Positions 10,786 to 17,658 are shown, numbered from the stretch's first letter. The stretch is DNA of 32,000 nucleotides from Planctomycetales bacterium (GCA_022646745.1 CP060262.1:2610001-2642000), one strand, 5' to 3'. The notes: generated from the sequence alone by a model not told the origin. Numbers and translations are program-made.

Positions 10786-10953
10786 ACTAGTATCAACTAA
10801 TTGAACCCCTGTCTCACACACAGGGGATGGTCCTGAGTGGTAAGGCACCACTTTTGCAGGATCGGCTTCCGATTCCCCTGGTAATTTGCGCGGCGATCTG
10901 CCGCGGCTGGCCAGGGATCGGCGGTTGGGTAACAATCTGGCTTGAGGAGCAGC

Positions 10954-11487
10954 ATGAGGAGAACCGCGGAAGGCGGCTGGACACGCGTCCTTGCCCTTAT
11001 TCTGGCAGTGCTGGCACTGCAGCTTTGTGCTTCGTGCGGCGGTGGTGGCAAATCCGAAGGCGGATCTCAGGCCCAGGAGCAGCGAACTGTTCTTGAGCTC
11101 AGCCTGAACCCCGTCAGCCAGCCGGATGGCACCATCCATGTTGAACTCAGTGCAACAAATGCCGCAAGGCTCTATCAGCTGTCATCGAGGCTAAGCTTCG
11201 ACAGCGCAGCTGTCCGGCCGCTTGGGCCGGCTGTTCCGGGCAACCTTCCGGCACAGGATGCAATCTTCTACAGCAATGACCGGCAGTCCGGATACATCCC
11301 GGTGGCTTTCACCAACACCAAGGCAGCCGCAGTCGGCCAGCAATCCGGCATCCTTTATTCAGTTGAATTCGAGGTGCTGGACGCGGGGCTCGATCCGCGT
11401 TTTGCCCTGGTCACGGACCCGCAGTACCTGATTGCGCGCGACAATAGTGCATCTGACATTGAACTCTCCGTCGAGGTGCAGCGTTGA
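10954..11487 (+). CDS. small lipoprotein with a single cohesin-like beta-sandwich domain
   Basis: The ATG at 10954 has GAGGAG 4 nt upstream; the ORF track's TTG at 10942 is less likely. Signal peptide RVLALILAVLALQLCAS|CGGGG is followed by a Gly/Ser/Gln linker. After that comes about 140 aa with a cohesin-like pattern (GTIHVELSATNAARLYQLSSRLSFDSAAVRPLG ... GYIPVAFTN ... GILYSVEFEVL). The cohesin call rests on pattern resemblance only. Confidence 0.7.
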   Translation: MRRTAEGGWTRVLALILAVLALQLCASCGGGGKSEGGSQAQEQRTVLELSLNPVSQPDGTIHVELSATNAARLYQLSSRLSFDSAAVRPLGPAVPGNLPAQDAIFYSNDRQSGYIPVAFTNTKAAAVGQQSGILYSVEFEVLDAGLDPRFALVTDPQYLIARDNSASDIELSVEVQR

Positions 11488-14237
11488 TCCATTTGCGCAC
11501 CTCCGTTTCCCTGATCCTGCTGATGGCAGCCATGGCTGTGGTGCATTCCGTCGCCTTTGCCTTCACTACTCCCAGCAATGAGGAGTGGGCAGAACTTGAG
11601 CGGCAGGGAAAGGCTGAATCAACCAGGCAGTGGATGCGAGAGCTTAGCGATGAGGTCAGCACAGTCCCGCAACTGAGCATTGCCGAGAAGCTGCAGCTGA
11701 TTGATGAGGGTTACGGACTGCCGACGCAGATCTTCAGCCCGGGACAGGCGGCTGGTTCGATGCGTGTCAACTTTGACAGCAACGAAGTGATAGACGAGCG
11801 CGACATCCTCGGGATGGGATTCGACTTCACTGACAAGAACGCCTCCACCACCGTGCCGCACGGATCACCGAAGGGCCTGACGATCCTGCTCAAGTTCACG
11901 GACCAGGCACCGACCGACAAGACATTCAACAGCAGCGGTACGCTTGTCAATGATGTCAACCACGATGCGGCCTGGGCTGACAACAAGTGGTACGACCAGG
12001 CTGCCCCTCCGACGATCGAGGACTGCAGCGTTTCCAATTACTACGACGCCAACAGCGGTGGCCGGCTCACACTGGATGGCGATGTGTTCAACAACGGAGC
12101 AGTGTGTGACGCAGATGGCTGGATCACCTGCAATGTGACCCGGGCCAGCATCACGAACTCGACACAGGTGTACAACGCGATCGAGAATGCCCTGCAGCAG
12201 GCGGATCCGCATATCGATTACAGCAATTACGACTCGAACAATGACGGCTTCATTGACGGCCTGACGGTGATCTATGCCGGGGCCAGCAACAGCTCAACCA
12301 TCTTCTGGCACTTCCGCTTCGTTGCCATCTACATGACCGCCGATGGCGTAACGATAAACTCCGGAATCTTCACGGGCGAGCAGGCCCAGGTCCGCATCTG
12401 GTGCCATGAATTCGGACATGAGCTCGGGCTGCCTGATCTCTATGACACCGGCGGATCACCCGCCGTGGACGGTGTCGGCCAATATGGCCTGATGGCGGGC
12501 TGGTACACGGGTCAGGGTACACATCCGCAGTTCATGACAGGCTGGTCGCGGCTCAAGCTGCGTTTTGTTGACCCGGTCGACATTCCAACAACAACTTCGT
12601 TGACGGGATACACGCTGAGCAGGGTCACGCAGGACAATCCGGGTGACACATTGCTTAGAGTGTGGCGTAACGGTGCACCGGGACCGGAGTACTTCCTTGT
12701 CGAATACCGGGACGGCACCCACTCATGGGACTCAAGCCTGTTTGGCAACGGTGGCCTGTGCTACTGGCATATCGATGAAACACTGACATCCGCGATCAAC
12801 CGAGACAACGCATTTGATCCGCAGCGTGTGCACCTTGAATGTGCCGGCTCCAGCCAGGATCCGATGCAGAACGACGCATGCTGGTACGACGGCTTCAACG
12901 GCGCGGATGCCTTTGATTACTTTGCTGACAACACTACTCCGAATGCTCACGACAACGACGGCGATACCACCGAGGTAAGACTAGAGCCGACCAGTGGCCG
13001 CGGTGCCGCCACGATGACGCTCGACATCCGCAACAACAACGGGGCAACCATCCCGACCCTGTCCTTTGATTCTCCGGCAAACGGCGCAACCGTCAGCGGG
13101 GATGTCACCTTTGACGTCACGAGCAACGCAGCCAACCGTGTGGAGTATTTCGTGGATGGCTGCCTCAAGCATGTGGAGAATGGTCCCGGCCCGTACTCAG
13201 GATTCAGCTGGAACACACGCAGCGCACTTGATACATCGGTGGAGCTTCGTGCTGTCGCATACAACAGCAGTGGCAACGACCCCGTGCGCAGCCTGACCCG
13301 CACAGTGACTGTCAGCAACGGCCAGCAGGGCGGCGAGTCAATGATATTCACTGAGAATTTCAACGGCTATTCCAGTGTGACTGACAGCACCCTGCTGAAC
13401 CTCTGGAACCTGCACGATGACAACATGGGCATGGAGTTCCAGCTGCGCACTGACCCGGCCTACAACGACACCGGCAAGGCACTGGCATTCGCCCAGACCA
13501 GTTTCCCGACACCGAACAACGGCAGCACGCAGGACCCGAATGCCGGGGTGTACCAGGGCCAGGATGACGACTGGCTGATGACACCACGCATTGGACTGTT
13601 TGGTTACACTGATGTCAAGTTCAAGATGTCAACCGCATTCCGGATTGACGGAGCCTGGGGCGAAGCGATGCTCGTGCTGCAGGTGTCGGACGATGATGGC
13701 GCTACCTGGGACGACCTTCAGTCCTTCAACTGGTGGCAGGACAGCAACACCCAGTGGTACACGGGCTGGTGGCGAAACGACGGCGGCACCCAGGACTTCT
13801 GGGCGGACCGGACCGTCAACATCGACCCGTCCTACATCAACAAGGATGTCTACTTCCGGTTGCTGTTCATCGGTGGCCGGACCTACAACGTCGGCTTTGC
13901 CGTGGATGAGATCCAGGTGACCGGCACACCGCTTCCGCTTAGCCTGAGCAGCGTCAGCCCTGACCGGGCCAAGGTTGGTGACAGCGTCACCCTCACCGGC
14001 GCAGGTTTCGGTGATACGCAGGGCAGCGGAGAGGTTCGCTTCAGCGACGGAGCCGGTGGCCACGTGGTTGCCAGTATCACCTCCTGGACCAATACGCAGA
14101 TCGTCTGCACGGTGCCAGGTGGTGCAAAATCAGATGCGAACGGAGTCTGGGTCTACCAGAACTTCACAGAGACCAGCAAGCTGGCCTTCACGGTCATCCT
14201 TGCAGCGCCGAATCTCCAGGGATTGGACCAGATTTAG
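11484..14237 (+). CDS. secreted M6-family (immune inhibitor A-like) zinc metalloprotease with C-terminal Ig-like, MAM/choice-of-anchor-J-like and IPT/TIG modules
   Basis: 917 aa. The TTG start overlaps the upstream stop (TTGA), with GAGGTG 5 nt upstream. The signal peptide ends AFA. The zinc site HEFGHELGLPDLYD (12405 onward) is the M6 signature. The C-terminus carries an IPT unit (VSPDRAKVGDSVTLTGAGFG ... SWTNTQIVCTVP). Confidence 0.9.
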   Translation: MIHLRTSVSLILLMAAMAVVHSVAFAFTTPSNEEWAELERQGKAESTRQWMRELSDEVSTVPQLSIAEKLQLIDEGYGLPTQIFSPGQAAGSMRVNFDSNEVIDERDILGMGFDFTDKNASTTVPHGSPKGLTILLKFTDQAPTDKTFNSSGTLVNDVNHDAAWADNKWYDQAAPPTIEDCSVSNYYDANSGGRLTLDGDVFNNGAVCDADGWITCNVTRASITNSTQVYNAIENALQQADPHIDYSNYDSNNDGFIDGLTVIYAGASNSSTIFWHFRFVAIYMTADGVTINSGIFTGEQAQVRIWCHEFGHELGLPDLYDTGGSPAVDGVGQYGLMAGWYTGQGTHPQFMTGWSRLKLRFVDPVDIPTTTSLTGYTLSRVTQDNPGDTLLRVWRNGAPGPEYFLVEYRDGTHSWDSSLFGNGGLCYWHIDETLTSAINRDNAFDPQRVHLECAGSSQDPMQNDACWYDGFNGADAFDYFADNTTPNAHDNDGDTTEVRLEPTSGRGAATMTLDIRNNNGATIPTLSFDSPANGATVSGDVTFDVTSNAANRVEYFVDGCLKHVENGPGPYSGFSWNTRSALDTSVELRAVAYNSSGNDPVRSLTRTVTVSNGQQGGESMIFTENFNGYSSVTDSTLLNLWNLHDDNMGMEFQLRTDPAYNDTGKALAFAQTSFPTPNNGSTQDPNAGVYQGQDDDWLMTPRIGLFGYTDVKFKMSTAFRIDGAWGEAMLVLQVSDDDGATWDDLQSFNWWQDSNTQWYTGWWRNDGGTQDFWADRTVNIDPSYINKDVYFRLLFIGGRTYNVGFAVDEIQVTGTPLPLSLSSVSPDRAKVGDSVTLTGAGFGDTQGSGEVRFSDGAGGHVVASITSWTNTQIVCTVPGGAKSDANGVWVYQNFTETSKLAFTVILAAPNLQGLDQI

Positions 14238-14363
14238 GCGGATACGCTGATGGCAGCGTGCTGCCGTCAAGGGGTGGACAGGAGTGGATAGGATGGGGCT
14301 GGACCCGCCGGCAGGGAGGCAGGCAGGAGTGGCCCAGGTAAGTAAAGTAGGTAGGTGGTTGCT

Positions 14364-15944
14364 ATGAGGAAACTAGTCTTGGCGGTGCTGACCCTGCTGG
14401 TTCTCGCCGGCTGCGGTGGAGGCGGCGGTACGTCCGGCACCGAGATCGTGCAGGTGCCGGCGCAGGAGCAGGGGCTTCAGATAATCAACCAGCAGAGCAC
14501 GGACGGAAACCTGGTGCTCGGTGTGATCAAGGATGCCAGCGGTGTACCGATCGGCGTGCAGATCCAATGGACCCGTGTGGACGTCGCCGGTGTGATGGGA
14601 TACTACATCTATCGAGATACCGCGTCCCTCCCGGGTGGGAACCCGGCCGGACAGGAATCAAAACGCATCAATGGTGGCAGCATCATCGGCCAGAGTGGCA
14701 CAGGCACGCAGACCCTGACCTTTGATGACATCATGGCTCCCCCGCCGTCTATCAATGACCAGTTCTTCTATCGCATGACGGTCGTCAACTCCACGAGTGA
14801 TGAGAGCGACATGTCCAACGAACTGTCGATCACGATCGCACAGCACACGATCACGACTGTCACCCAGGGCGGCGGCAGCATCGGTGACAGCGTGACGATC
14901 AACGGTTCCAACTTCGGCAGCAGTCAGGAAGCAACGGACTTCGTCTACTTCACGAACTCCAGCGGTACTACGAACGTTGAAGCCAATGTGACCAGCTGGA
15001 CCCCGAGCCAGATCATCTGCGACATCCCGTACGGAGCAGCTGACGGCCTTGTCGGTGTCCAGATCAACGGCGTGCTTGTACTTGCCCCGACCGGACAGGA
15101 AATCGACTACAACGAACCGAGCGTCACCAATGTGGCCCCGACCCAGGACTGGGTGCAGAACCTGACCATCGTGATTGACGGTGTGGACTTCGGCCCGGAT
15201 CCGAACGGTGCAGGTACCAGCACAGACGTGCTGTTCGGCACCACTCCGATCCTGCTGACGGACATCGTCAGCTGGTCTGACACCGAGATCCAGTGCAAGG
15301 TGCCTGCGGCTGCAACGGGACTGACCGTCTCGCTGACTGTGGATGTTGCTGGCAACGTCAGCAATGGCACGAGCTTCCTGCTCCTGCCGCACATCGACTC
15401 GATCAGCCCGACCAGTGGCAACACAGGCGTGACCTTTGATGTCTCGGGAACGAACTTTGGCAGCGTACAGGGAACCGGTAGCGTCACCCTCGCGGGCGTG
15501 AACTGCTCCGTCAACAGCTGGGCAAACGGCACGGTCAACGTCACCGTCCCGGCTGCGGCAGTGGATGGCGCCGTGCTCCTCACCCGTGACGACACCCAGG
15601 CTTCATCCCTCTCCGGATTTGACGTCATTCCGGCCATCACCAACGTCTCGCCCAACCGTCGTGTCGAGGGTGAGCAGGTGACCATCACCGGCTCAGGCTT
15701 CGGTGCGACCCAGAACGGCAGCACCGTGACCTTCAACGGTGGTGGTGGAGTGGTGGCCACGAACATCATCAGCTGGGGCCCGACGACGATCGTCTGCGAG
15801 GTTCCGGCCGGTGCATCGACTGGTACCATTACCGTCCACATCAATGACGCCTCCGTCGGAAGTGACATTGATGACGCGACCAGCGGCTCGAACATCACTG
15901 TGATCCTTGCCGCTCCGAACCTGACTGGCGTCGGCCAGCTCTGA
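14364..15944 (+). CDS. lipoprotein: one Fn3-like domain plus four IPT/TIG repeats and a conserved C-terminal tail
   Basis: Lipobox LVLAG|CGGGGG. The Fn3-like unit reads IQWTRVDVAGVMGYYIYRD ... FFYRMTVVN. There are four units of the type P.I..V.P..G..G..VTI.G..FG ... SW....I.C.VP. I prefer the ATG at 14364; the GTG at 14355 is an alternative. Confidence 0.85.
   Translation: MRKLVLAVLTLLVLAGCGGGGGTSGTEIVQVPAQEQGLQIINQQSTDGNLVLGVIKDASGVPIGVQIQWTRVDVAGVMGYYIYRDTASLPGGNPAGQESKRINGGSIIGQSGTGTQTLTFDDIMAPPPSINDQFFYRMTVVNSTSDESDMSNELSITIAQHTITTVTQGGGSIGDSVTINGSNFGSSQEATDFVYFTNSSGTTNVEANVTSWTPSQIICDIPYGAADGLVGVQINGVLVLAPTGQEIDYNEPSVTNVAPTQDWVQNLTIVIDGVDFGPDPNGAGTSTDVLFGTTPILLTDIVSWSDTEIQCKVPAAATGLTVSLTVDVAGNVSNGTSFLLLPHIDSISPTSGNTGVTFDVSGTNFGSVQGTGSVTLAGVNCSVNSWANGTVNVTVPAAAVDGAVLLTRDDTQASSLSGFDVIPAITNVSPNRRVEGEQVTITGSGFGATQNGSTVTFNGGGGVVATNIISWGPTTIVCEVPAGASTGTITVHINDASVGSDIDDATSGSNITVILAAPNLTGVGQL
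14844..15908 (+). repeat. four tandem IPT/TIG-type coding repeats (about 81-92 codons each)
   Basis: Units begin at HTITTVTQ, PSVTNVAP, PHIDSISP and PAITNVSP. Each contains a G.[ND]FG motif and a SW...[IV].C/V.VP motif. Confidence 0.8.
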
Positions 15945-15975: not shown

Positions 15976-17658
15976 ATGAATGGGATTCTCTTGAAGCTGA
16001 CAACTATGGCGATGGGCCTGATCCTGGCCGCATCCCTCAGTTCCTGCGGCGGCAGCCCTGCCGCCAGTGAACTGGCGACAGGGGAATCCCTGCAGTCACC
16101 GCAGCTCCTCGGAGTCGGTACGGGAGACCGTGCCGTCTCCGGGGCGCCTGCGGGAATCTTTGTGACCTGGAACCGCGTGGACGACCCGCGCGTGACGGGT
16201 TACTACCTTTACCGTGACACGGCATCCATTCCGGATCCGCCGGTGGACGGTGTGATCGACCCGGGCCTGCGCGTCAATGGTGGCGGACTGATCGCCAACC
16301 CTGACAGCGGTGCCACGGTGACATTCAATGACATCTTCTCCGTCGTGGTGGGTGAGACCTACTTCTACCGCCTGACGGTCGTCAACCTTGATGGCGATGA
16401 AAGCTATCCCAGCAATGAGCTGAGCTGGACCATCAGCCTGCATACCGCTGGCAATGTGACACCAGACAGTGCGTACTGGGGTAATGACGTAGTGGTGGAC
16501 GGGACGAACTTCCTCAGCTACAACGCGGCCACTGACTTCGTCGTGTTCCCGACATACGATGGTGGCACCATTGAGGGCGCAATCGTGGACTGGCAGGACA
16601 CCGCGATCACTGTCACTGTGCCGGAGCCGGCGGTCAGCGGTCCTCTGGGCGTGCTGATCGATGGTGTGGTTTCCTTCACTGACAACAGCCTGACCATTCT
16701 TAATCCCGTCATAGGGGATCTCGATCCGAATCCGGGTTTTGTCGGCCAGGCTGTCACGATCAATGGCGTCGGCTTCGGGGCCAGCCAGGATGTTGGTGAC
16801 GACCTGCTGTTCGGTGGTGCCAGCTTCACAGGTACGATCAGCAGCTGGTCTGACAGCGCAATTGAGATCGTGATTCCTGAAGATGCAGTTGCCTCGAGCG
16901 TGCAGGTGGTCAAGAATGCAGCCAACAGCAATGAGCTGCAGTTTATTCCCCGCGCGGAGATTCTCAGTGTTGACAACGATGGATTCCAGGAAGGTGAGGA
17001 AATCACCCTGACAGGCCGCCATTTCGGGGCCGTTGAGGGAACCGCCGCCCTTGATGATGCAACTGTACTGACCATCAGCAGCTGGACCGACACGGAAGTC
17101 ACCCTGTTGCTTGCCGGAAGCGCCGGTGCCCACGGCATCATCCTCACGTCAGATGCCAATGGCACAAGCAATACGTTTGACTACAACATCGGTGAGCCGC
17201 TCAGCGTGTCACTGGATGGATTCACGGCTGGCCAGGTCTATCGTCCTGGTGATGACCCGGTGGCCGGGGTGACAACGGCTGATGATGCTGAACTCGTCGA
17301 GCTGCTGCTCGGCGGCAATGTGGTAGCCAGCTCGGATACCGCACCTTTCGAGGGCATGACCCTTGTGATCGCTGACTACATCAATGGTGCCTATGACGTG
17401 GAACTGCGTGCCACACGTCGCAGCATTTCCGTCACGAGCGATCCGATCGGCATCCTGCTCTACTCGCTGGTTGGCGACGTAAACGCGGACGGCAGCGTGG
17501 ATGAACTGGATCGGGATGCCCTGCTGCCACTGATCGTGAACCCGCTGCCTCCGCTGGAGATCATGCCTTGGTGGGACACGGATGAGGATGGTACGGTGAC
17601 CGAGGCTGACCTCAGCCTGGTCGGTTACAACTTCGGCAACATCCTCAGCAGCGACTAA
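15976..17658 (+). CDS. lipoprotein paralogous to the preceding gene: Fn3-like domain, three IPT/TIG repeats, an Ig-like module and a C-terminal dockerin
   Basis: Lipobox LAASLSS|CGGS. The Fn3-like unit (VTWNRVDDPRVTGYYLYRD ... YFYRLTVVN) is collinear with the 14364 product. The IPT units are as in the upstream gene. The C-terminus carries two EF-hand-like dockerin segments. Confidence 0.85.
   Translation: MNGILLKLTTMAMGLILAASLSSCGGSPAASELATGESLQSPQLLGVGTGDRAVSGAPAGIFVTWNRVDDPRVTGYYLYRDTASIPDPPVDGVIDPGLRVNGGGLIANPDSGATVTFNDIFSVVVGETYFYRLTVVNLDGDESYPSNELSWTISLHTAGNVTPDSAYWGNDVVVDGTNFLSYNAATDFVVFPTYDGGTIEGAIVDWQDTAITVTVPEPAVSGPLGVLIDGVVSFTDNSLTILNPVIGDLDPNPGFVGQAVTINGVGFGASQDVGDDLLFGGASFTGTISSWSDSAIEIVIPEDAVASSVQVVKNAANSNELQFIPRAEILSVDNDGFQEGEEITLTGRHFGAVEGTAALDDATVLTISSWTDTEVTLLLAGSAGAHGIILTSDANGTSNTFDYNIGEPLSVSLDGFTAGQVYRPGDDPVAGVTTADDAELVELLLGGNVVASSDTAPFEGMTLVIADYINGAYDVELRATRRSISVTSDPIGILLYSLVGDVNADGSVDELDRDALLPLIVNPLPPLEIMPWWDTDEDGTVTEADLSLVGYNFGNILSSD
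16441..17193 (+). repeat. three tandem IPT/TIG-type coding repeats
   Basis: Units start near TAGNVTPD, NPVIGDLDP and PRAEILSVD. Each contains G..FG and SW[ST]D[ST].[IV] motifs. Confidence 0.75.
17473..17655 (+). other. dockerin module (two Ca-binding-loop repeats) at the C-terminus of the 15976 product
   Basis: GDVNADGSVDELDRDALLPLI ... WDTDEDGTVTEADLSLVGYNFG. Both segments fit the D.[ND].DG.[IV]...D dockerin repeat and have the usual spacing of about 30 aa. Confidence 0.7.

Follow-up and report, generated by a model that had tools for sequence, protein, structure and literature searches.

The window analyzed here is the whole 32,000-nucleotide stretch at positions 2,610,001-2,642,000 of a single-contig genome of 4.11 Mb and 61% G+C (Planctomycetales bacterium, GCA_022646745.1, CP060262.1). 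It encodes, one after the other, an M6 metalloprotease and a lipoprotein with one Fn3 and four IPT domains, which we call the "stalk"; both end in the same short C-terminal tail, the subject of this work. The features that define the tail are as follows (positions counted from the first letter of the window):

11484..14237, + strand: M6 (immune-inhibitor-A-like) metalloprotease (Pfam Peptidase_M6, Big_7 and TIG; NCBIfam TIGR03296, E = 9e-39)
13941..14198, + strand: terminal IPT/TIG domain of the M6 protease, directly before the tail (Pfam TIG, E = 1.1e-6, residues 820-898)
14199..14234, + strand: tail of the M6 protease, 12 residues (LAAPNLQGLDQI); stop codon 14235-14237
14355..15944, + strand: stalk lipoprotein, with lipobox (LAGC), Gly-rich linker, Fn3, four IPT domains and tail
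15630..15905, + strand: fourth and last IPT/TIG domain of the stalk, directly before the tail (Pfam TIG; strands in the AlphaFold model)
15906..15941, + strand: tail of the stalk lipoprotein, 12 residues (LAAPNLTGVGQL); stop codon 15942-15944

The M6 open reading frame (ORF) has 917 residues and ends ...KLAFTVILAAPNLQGLDQI; the stalk ORF, whose database copy P0001 begins at the ATG at 14364, ends ...SNITVILAAPNLTGVGQL. Comparison of the two 16-residue ends gives 11 identical residues, seven of which (T, V, A, A, N, L, and G) are specified by different codons. A first-pass annotation of the window had described this shared ending as TVIL-AAPNL.G..Q[IL]-stop, with seven identical residues that differ in their codons, and had concluded that the match is kept at the level of the protein and did not arise by recent copying of DNA. 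Both ORFs bear out the ending and its coordinates, in which the stop codons are counted, and the codon differences, found at 7 of the 11 identical residues, support the conclusion. The extent of the tail has to be redrawn in part: since the Pfam TIG profile extends into the "FTV" ahead of the tail, and the last strand in the stalk AlphaFold model ends at I-T-V-I directly ahead of it, "TVI" belongs to the last IPT domain as its integral G strand, and the tail proper of the window proteins is the 12-residue L-A-A-P-N-L-x-G-x-x-Q-[IL], starting at an invariant Leu.

The domains ahead of the tail score well against the TIG profile (PF01833), with 28.9 bits for the terminal domain of the M6 protease, over the curated cut-off of 20.9, and 119 bits over four stretches for the stalk (E = 7.4e-35). 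The tail itself matches no curated family in Pfam and NCBIfam searches of the window proteins; IPT domain and tail together are covered by a profile of our own at residues 819-917 of the M6 protease and 426-529 of the stalk. In the AlphaFold model of the stalk (built from 46 orthologues; mean predicted local distance difference test, pLDDT, of 89), the tail has no regular structure and its pLDDT, in 10-residue blocks, falls from 86 to 66. The model of the M6 protease, built from 13 sequences, is poor (mean pLDDT 61) and supports only the statement that the tail is not modeled as a strand; there the tail has no secondary structure and a pLDDT falling from 59 to 41. A fold search with the stalk model retrieves the IPT arrays of plexin and Met and the SGBP-B lipoproteins of Bacteroides.

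We searched 22 species genomes of one uncultured bacterial phylum and an outgroup of 277 genomes with a 26-column profile of the tail, and then fetched every matching ORF to check where the tail lies. It is present in 21 of the 22 phylum genomes, in 81 proteins and at 2-6 per genome; G018, the sole phylum genome without a match, is too fragmented for its protease ends to be read. All 81 tails lie at the extreme C terminus, 74 of them with a length of exactly 12 residues, and they follow the pattern L-[PAG]-[PAS]-P-x-[LI]-[GTD]-[GD]-[LVI]-x-Q-[YLIF]-COOH, the successive columns being L (79/81), [PAG], [PAS], P (81/81), x, [LI] (80), [GTD], [GD], [LVI], [GEQD], Q (72), and [YLIF] (69). Among orthologues, the tail is kept in all 45 of the stalk, at overall identities of only 43-79%, and in 13 of 13 of the M6 protease, and its L, P, and Q are invariant both in the 46 stalk orthologues and in those of the M6 protease. 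An alignment of the terminal module across the mixed families retains only five invariant columns, two of which lie within the tail.

In the 277 outgroup genomes, the tail profile finds no full-length match. Three weak outgroup matches that we checked (L132, L133, and L134, in G110, G083, and G289) are an internal segment that adjoins a GHA motif and is an almost exact mimic of the tail core, and the remaining weak outgroup matches look alike. This segment, probably the HIGH-motif region of valyl-tRNA synthetase, resembles the tail by chance and will contaminate searches made with the motif only.

Within the genome of the window, a position-specific matrix derived from the orthologues and scanned over all six frames of the 4.11 Mb gives five strong matches, each within 0-2 residues of a stop codon, and shows the tail at no internal site. 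The same scan places three further M6 carriers at genome positions 3006621-3010037, 3010547-3013891, and 3922174-3925680. The strict pattern put forward in the first-pass annotation, AAPN[LI].G..Q[ILV]$, finds no protein of this genome other than the two in the window, and it is the looser matrix that reveals the family. The two proteins first singled out do carry the tail, which is not peculiar to them and extends through the phylum; the search of related genomes and tabulation of families then suggested have yielded the 81 carriers in 21 of 22 genomes, most of them proteases. A degenerate DNA pattern run over all representative genomes gave four matches, only one of them real, and is unsuitable because the motif varies too much at the DNA level. 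An S8 lipoprotein of the same genome (1451421-1455194, - strand) ends ...RLLDPTELTGIGQFSLSDGI, a degenerate tail with a shifted Pro register and six extra residues after it; no other carrier was seen to have a nonterminal motif.

Classified by their catalytic domains, the 81 carriers comprise 30 M6, 24 S8, and 5 papain-type C1 proteases, together with 16 stalk lipoproteins and 6 fragments or unclassified proteins. The tail ends nearly all big tethered proteases of the phylum plus one stalk-like lipoprotein, and its presence on three unrelated catalytic classes and one nonenzyme is as expected for a targeting or assembly module that different proteins share. The carrier proteases have a common C-terminal half of the order Big_7, (MAM-like), IPT, tail; the M6 protease, for example, consists of a signal peptide, a dockerin-like loop, the catalytic domain, Big_7, a MAM-like domain, IPT, and the tail. 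Stalks and most S8 carriers have a lipobox and the M6 proteases an ordinary signal peptide, so that every carrier is tethered or tetherable at its N terminus, with the tail at the far end.

Some carriers depart from the common arrangements. A fusion of a C1 protease with Big_7, three IPT domains, and the tail is encoded at L032:6382-8349 in G010 and has counterparts in G008, G012, G014, and G015; G010, G012, G014, and G015 have no stalk, and G008 has both, as if this protein took the place of the stalk in stalk-less genomes. At L026:109-2994 (G005:C22), in an ORF cut by the contig end and at the usual M6 position, an S8 catalytic domain is followed by an M6-type terminal IPT domain (VWVH...SNKLPFTVVL) and the tail, which looks like a swap of the catalytic head ahead of a constant C-terminal module. 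The orthologue of the window M6 gene in a sister genome (L034:9096-11576, G001:C2) is broken into several short frames, the one with the tail having 155 codons, and is either a pseudogene or an assembly error.

The origin of the tail can be read from its homologues. We built a 97-position profile from the terminal IPT domain plus tail and ran it against 1.84 billion representative proteins; the search was swamped by giant multi-IPT proteins and is useful only for homology to IPT junctions. Tandem IPT arrays of other organisms align up to positions 94-95 of the 97, the tail columns falling on the junction and the first (A) strand of the next domain, as in ...FTVTVPAPSITGLDP..., FTVTVPAPSITGLDPTSG, and ...VTFTVTVPAPSITGLDPTSG...; none of the 150 listed matches ends in the tail. 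These alignments show the tail to be, by homology, the linker plus A strand left from an IPT domain that has otherwise been lost, and the "orphan first strand" of the first-pass annotation holds in this sense, for the origin of the tail. As in tandem IPT/TIG arrays (PF01833), the domain ahead of the tail is a bona fide TIG domain, and the tail aligns position by position with their ...FTV-x-PxP-x-I-T-x-L/I-x-P... junction. Unlike in those arrays, no domain follows, the tail ends one residue past the position of the closing Pro of the strand, which is here an almost invariant Gln, and the stub that is left is conserved phylum-wide and co-varies between proteins.

This co-variation is seen among the tails of unrelated proteins encoded in the same genome. 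For 11 neighboring protease-stalk pairs, one "M6" partner of which (in G005) turned out to have an S8 catalytic domain, tail identity is 7.55 of 12 within a genome versus 5.45 of 12 across genomes, a value reached by 2 of 20,000 permutations (p about 1e-4; this and the permutation p values below are optimistic and overstate the evidence because the genomes are related and are not independent samples). The 92-residue IPT cores before the same tails are 38.3% identical within versus 37.9% across genomes (p = 0.35-0.46). Cross-family pairs among the 75 classified carriers give the same picture, with 7.27 tail identities of 12 within versus 5.66 between genomes (p = 0.0003), or 7.27 versus 6.42 when permutation is confined to the taxonomic family (p = 0.0003). 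The within-genome excess is largest at the last residue (+0.37), followed by position 7 (+0.27), and is almost nil in the 12 residues upstream of the tail (2.89 versus 2.61). Genomes have tail "dialects," such as IDDL[EGD]QL in all four carriers of G007, L[GT]G[LV]GQL in G003 and G006, and LGG[VL]xQY in G010 and G014, and the terminal residue is Tyr or Phe throughout family f2 versus Leu or Ile in f1. In six same-genome tail pairs, 20 of 53 identical residues share their codon. Recent gene conversion is an unlikely source of the similarity because codons differ and the flanking cores have diverged too far to start it.

The tails track the tails of other proteins and not, as expected of a passive cap, the domain to which they belong, which favors a tag that is read in trans, either by one co-evolving partner or by tails that bind each other. 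We tentatively propose that the tail serves, specifically in this phylum, as a C-terminal tag for recognition (docking or assembly), a reading to which we give somewhat less than even weight. The 12 residues extend from the last IPT domain, at the end opposite the membrane anchor (the M6 proteases have a signal peptide only, each being encoded with a cohesin-like lipoprotein of its own), and the exposed strand would be bound, probably by beta-strand addition, by one common partner per genome or by the tails or terminal IPT modules of other carriers. M6, S8, and C1 proteases and the IPT stalk would in this way be brought into one cell-surface proteolytic assembly, and a partner that co-evolves with the tag would give rise to one tail dialect per genome. 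Co-assembly of proteases at the cell surface appears to be the most economical function, with a putative binding partner and geometry.

Several observations weigh against a recognition tag. The tail-binding partner is so far hypothetical, and a general sorting system would be expected to serve more than 2-6 carriers per genome. Because the S8 lipoprotein of the window's own genome has a degenerate tail plus six residues, it is doubtful that the tail or a free carboxylate is strictly needed; moreover, 7 of the 81 tails have 1-3 extra residues, and some end in a nonhydrophobic residue (K, R, Q, or N). Structure prediction, proposed in the first-pass annotation as a check on whether the tail stays free, agrees in part: the tail is without regular structure and its pLDDT falls, but the first half of the stalk tail has a fairly high block pLDDT of 86 in the AlphaFold model, and that part may simply pack on its own IPT domain. 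An ancient conversion of the tail alone is also possible despite the codon counts.

The genes around the two tail proteins form a recurrent block. The order small lipoprotein, M6 protease with tail, stalk with tail, and tail-less dockerin paralogue recurs in families f1 and f3, and up to the stalk also in taxonomic family f2. The additional features of this block, and the paralogues of its first gene elsewhere in the genome, are as follows:

10942..11487, + strand: small cohesin-like lipoprotein, overlapping the M6 start codon (profile similarity to solved cohesins)
11769..11819, + strand: dockerin/EF-hand-like loop in the N-terminal part of the M6 protease, N96..G112, ...NFDSNEVIDERDILGMG (13 orthologues)
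15976..17658, + strand: stalk paralogue without tail, with a dockerin at its end (Pfam TIG, E = 1.4e-10; Dockerin_1, E = 3.7e-4)
3009916-3010524 (-), 3013888-3014433 (-), and 3921660-3922292 (+), genome positions: cohesin-like paralogues

The profile of the small lipoprotein, made from eight family members, matches the cellulosomal cohesins 4uyp, 6kgc, 4ums, and others with E = 3.7e-5 to 5e-3, and Pfam Cohesin matches one orthologue with E = 2.5e-4, below its cut-off. In the window's own genome, each of the four M6 carriers has its own overlapping cohesin-like paralogue directly upstream, and elsewhere in the phylum, such an overlapping gene lies upstream of 24 of the 24 M6 carriers for which upstream sequence was available. 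The same gene lies upstream of 0 of 23 S8, 0 of 4 C1, and 0 of 13 stalk carriers (0/40). The M6 loop has N96, D98, N100, V102, D104, E105, R106, D107, L109, and G112 invariant in 13 orthologues, and paralogues give subthreshold Dockerin_1 matches (E = 0.027 and 0.06). Taken together, the M6 protease and its cohesin-like gene look like a one-to-one cohesin-dockerin tether for the protease. The tail-less dockerin paralogue follows the stalk gene, a position conserved in f1 and f3; it contains the only Dockerin_1 dockerin that Pfam finds in the block, and the tail region has no Dockerin_1 (PF00404) match.

It is highly improbable that the tail binds the cohesin-like lipoprotein of 10942-11487, which the first-pass annotation named as a possible receptor. 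The gene does overlap the M6 gene, which suggests joint translation, within the block that encodes both tail proteins, and the four M6 paralogues each have a cohesin-like paralogue and a tail variant of their own. We nevertheless rejected this candidate because it accompanies M6 genes only (24/24 versus 0/23 S8, 0/4 C1, and 0/13 stalk carriers) and a cassette of G017 encodes S8 and stalk tails without any cohesin-like gene; the invariant dockerin-like loop of the M6 protease is a likelier and more orthodox ligand. Of the earlier idea of a recognition peptide, what stands is thus the recognition, which co-variation favors over a structural cap, and not the receptor. The cap, also offered in that annotation, would be only a leftover interdomain linker, without a partner in trans, that shields the last IPT domain at its exposed end and stabilizes it. 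It would account for the homology of the tail to ordinary IPT-IPT junctions, for the invariant Leu and Pro that adjoin the G strand, where block pLDDT is 86, for the different Pro-rich tails of similar length on other IPT-terminal lipoproteins of the genome, and for the tolerance of a degenerate tail by one S8 carrier. We consider it unlikely, since tails of unrelated proteins in the same genome are alike and their IPT cores are not; furthermore, the strongest genome-specific position is the last residue, furthest from the domain, the last six residues have low predicted order, and IPT-terminal proteins of other phyla end 0-3 residues past the G strand.

An export, sorting, or processing signal, in which IPT domain and tail would be read by a secretion machine or a C-terminal processing protease in the manner of type IX secretion system (T9SS) cargo, is a rather unlikely explanation. 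The element is strictly C-terminal, of fixed length, lineage-specific, and placed behind an Ig-like domain on secreted proteases; its last residue is mostly hydrophobic or aromatic (69/81), and genome dialects would also suit a co-evolving machine. Against this, the whole genome has only two marginal matches to TIGR04183 (1608522 and 2452789), none in a carrier, and no match to SprA, a weak argument given that control genomes also lack SprA; GldK matches are subthreshold, far below the cut-off, and no Slam/type XI secretion system (T11SS) barrel (PF04575) was found in the genome, so that neither the T9SS nor the Slam/T11SS route has support from these searches. There are only 2-6 cargo proteins per genome, and many other exported lipoproteins, including the adjacent dockerin paralogue, are without the tail. 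The earlier exclusion of a T9SS C-terminal domain is therefore upheld, as is that of PEP-CTERM, LPXTG, and GlyGly-CTERM anchors: 12 (rarely 13-15) mostly polar residues follow the domain, without the hydrophobic helix and basic cluster of LPXTG, PEP-CTERM, GlyGly-CTERM, or PGF-CTERM signals. It is doubtful, too, that the orphan A strand enters an Ig-like domain of another subunit as a donor strand, linking stalk and proteases head to tail, and we would give as little weight to its variant by analogy with type V pili, exchange after a neighboring protease has removed the acceptor's own first strand. The tail is an A strand without a domain, and the stalk lipoprotein is always encoded beside a protease, which recalls the logic of type V pili, made from lipoprotein precursors with C-terminal donor strands by protease-triggered exchange (PMC13655056). 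However, the model gives each of the four stalk IPT domains an A strand of its own with high confidence and does not have a pilin-like fold, no acceptor domain lacking its A strand was found, and G010, G012, G014, and G015 have tails but no stalk. A mutual-information scan of the stalk alignment has weak peaks at residues 37-44 and 237-243 only, diffuse and within noise; these peaks, which fall on IPT1 and on the strand that first follows the lipid anchor (residues 37-44), are leads, not evidence. It is a long shot that tails act as donor strands of a hitherto undescribed assembly system, joining N-terminally tethered proteases of three classes and the IPT stalk into a surface "proteolysome," which could proceed by mutual strand swapping or by protease-triggered strand exchange.

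Comparison with known systems places the tail close to several of them and within none. Like the type V pilins FimA and Mfa1, carriers include lipoprotein precursors (the stalk and most S8 carriers have a lipobox, the M6 proteases do not), and the pilins likewise have a short C-terminal strand whose very end starts binding and a protease as assembly partner (PMC13655056); unlike them, the stalk is an Fn3 and IPT rod in place of two transthyretin-like domains, most tail carriers are enzymes and not structural subunits, and the tail has no identified acceptor groove or cleavage site. With the dockerin-cohesin system of cellulosomes, the tail shares its nature as a small C-terminal module on different hydrolases of one organism, a partner specificity (for the tail, a putative one) that drifts between species, and the presence of cohesin-like and dockerin modules in the same gene block. 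It differs in having 12 residues and no calcium-binding repeats, in that the enzymes are proteases, and in that the cohesin-like genes accompany M6 only and the true dockerin is on the tail-less paralogue. The T9SS C-terminal domain (TIGR04183) is also a lineage-restricted, C-terminal Ig-like domain on secreted proteases, whereas conservation here lies in a peptide that follows the domain and not in the domain, the TIGR04183 model misses the carriers, and no T9SS core was found, the SprA search being a weak test. PDZ ligands and the beta-signal of outer membrane proteins show a partial resemblance to the tail in the fixed distance to the free C terminus (74 of 81 tails), in a last residue that is mostly hydrophobic or aromatic (69 of 81), and in presumed binding by strand addition; in contrast to these, the tail may end in K, R, Q, or N, and some tails are extended. 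Neither the PDZ classes nor the beta-signal is known to show such a residue pattern.

Bacteria direct their secreted enzymes by short tags at the C terminus (dockerins, T9SS domains, sortase signals, pilin donor strands), and the recognition of each new tag has made a secretion or assembly pathway accessible to study. Short C-terminal peptides for recognition or strand donation are a known kind of thing; a full-text literature search returned no described precedent for an orphan IPT strand on three protease classes with dialects. The tail marks essentially the whole large-protease set of one uncultured phylum in only 12 residues of plainly Ig-like strand origin, and its genome-specific dialect is a direct handle for a partner search by covariation or peptide pull-down. 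If the partner is the other carriers, the tail would be a new way of building multienzyme surface complexes, and if donor-strand assembly is true, the system would parallel the type V pilus with an Ig/IPT fold and the cellulosome with proteases. Its small size could also make the tag useful in protein engineering.

We further observed two adjacent lipoprotein genes in the window's own genome (3242706-3244304 and 3244390-3245724, + strand) whose products have an IPT domain and then different Pro-rich tails, ...NIIPGPPDNPGGQQT and ...NVIPATPGAPTGNTV, and these may represent a second tail type on neighboring genes.

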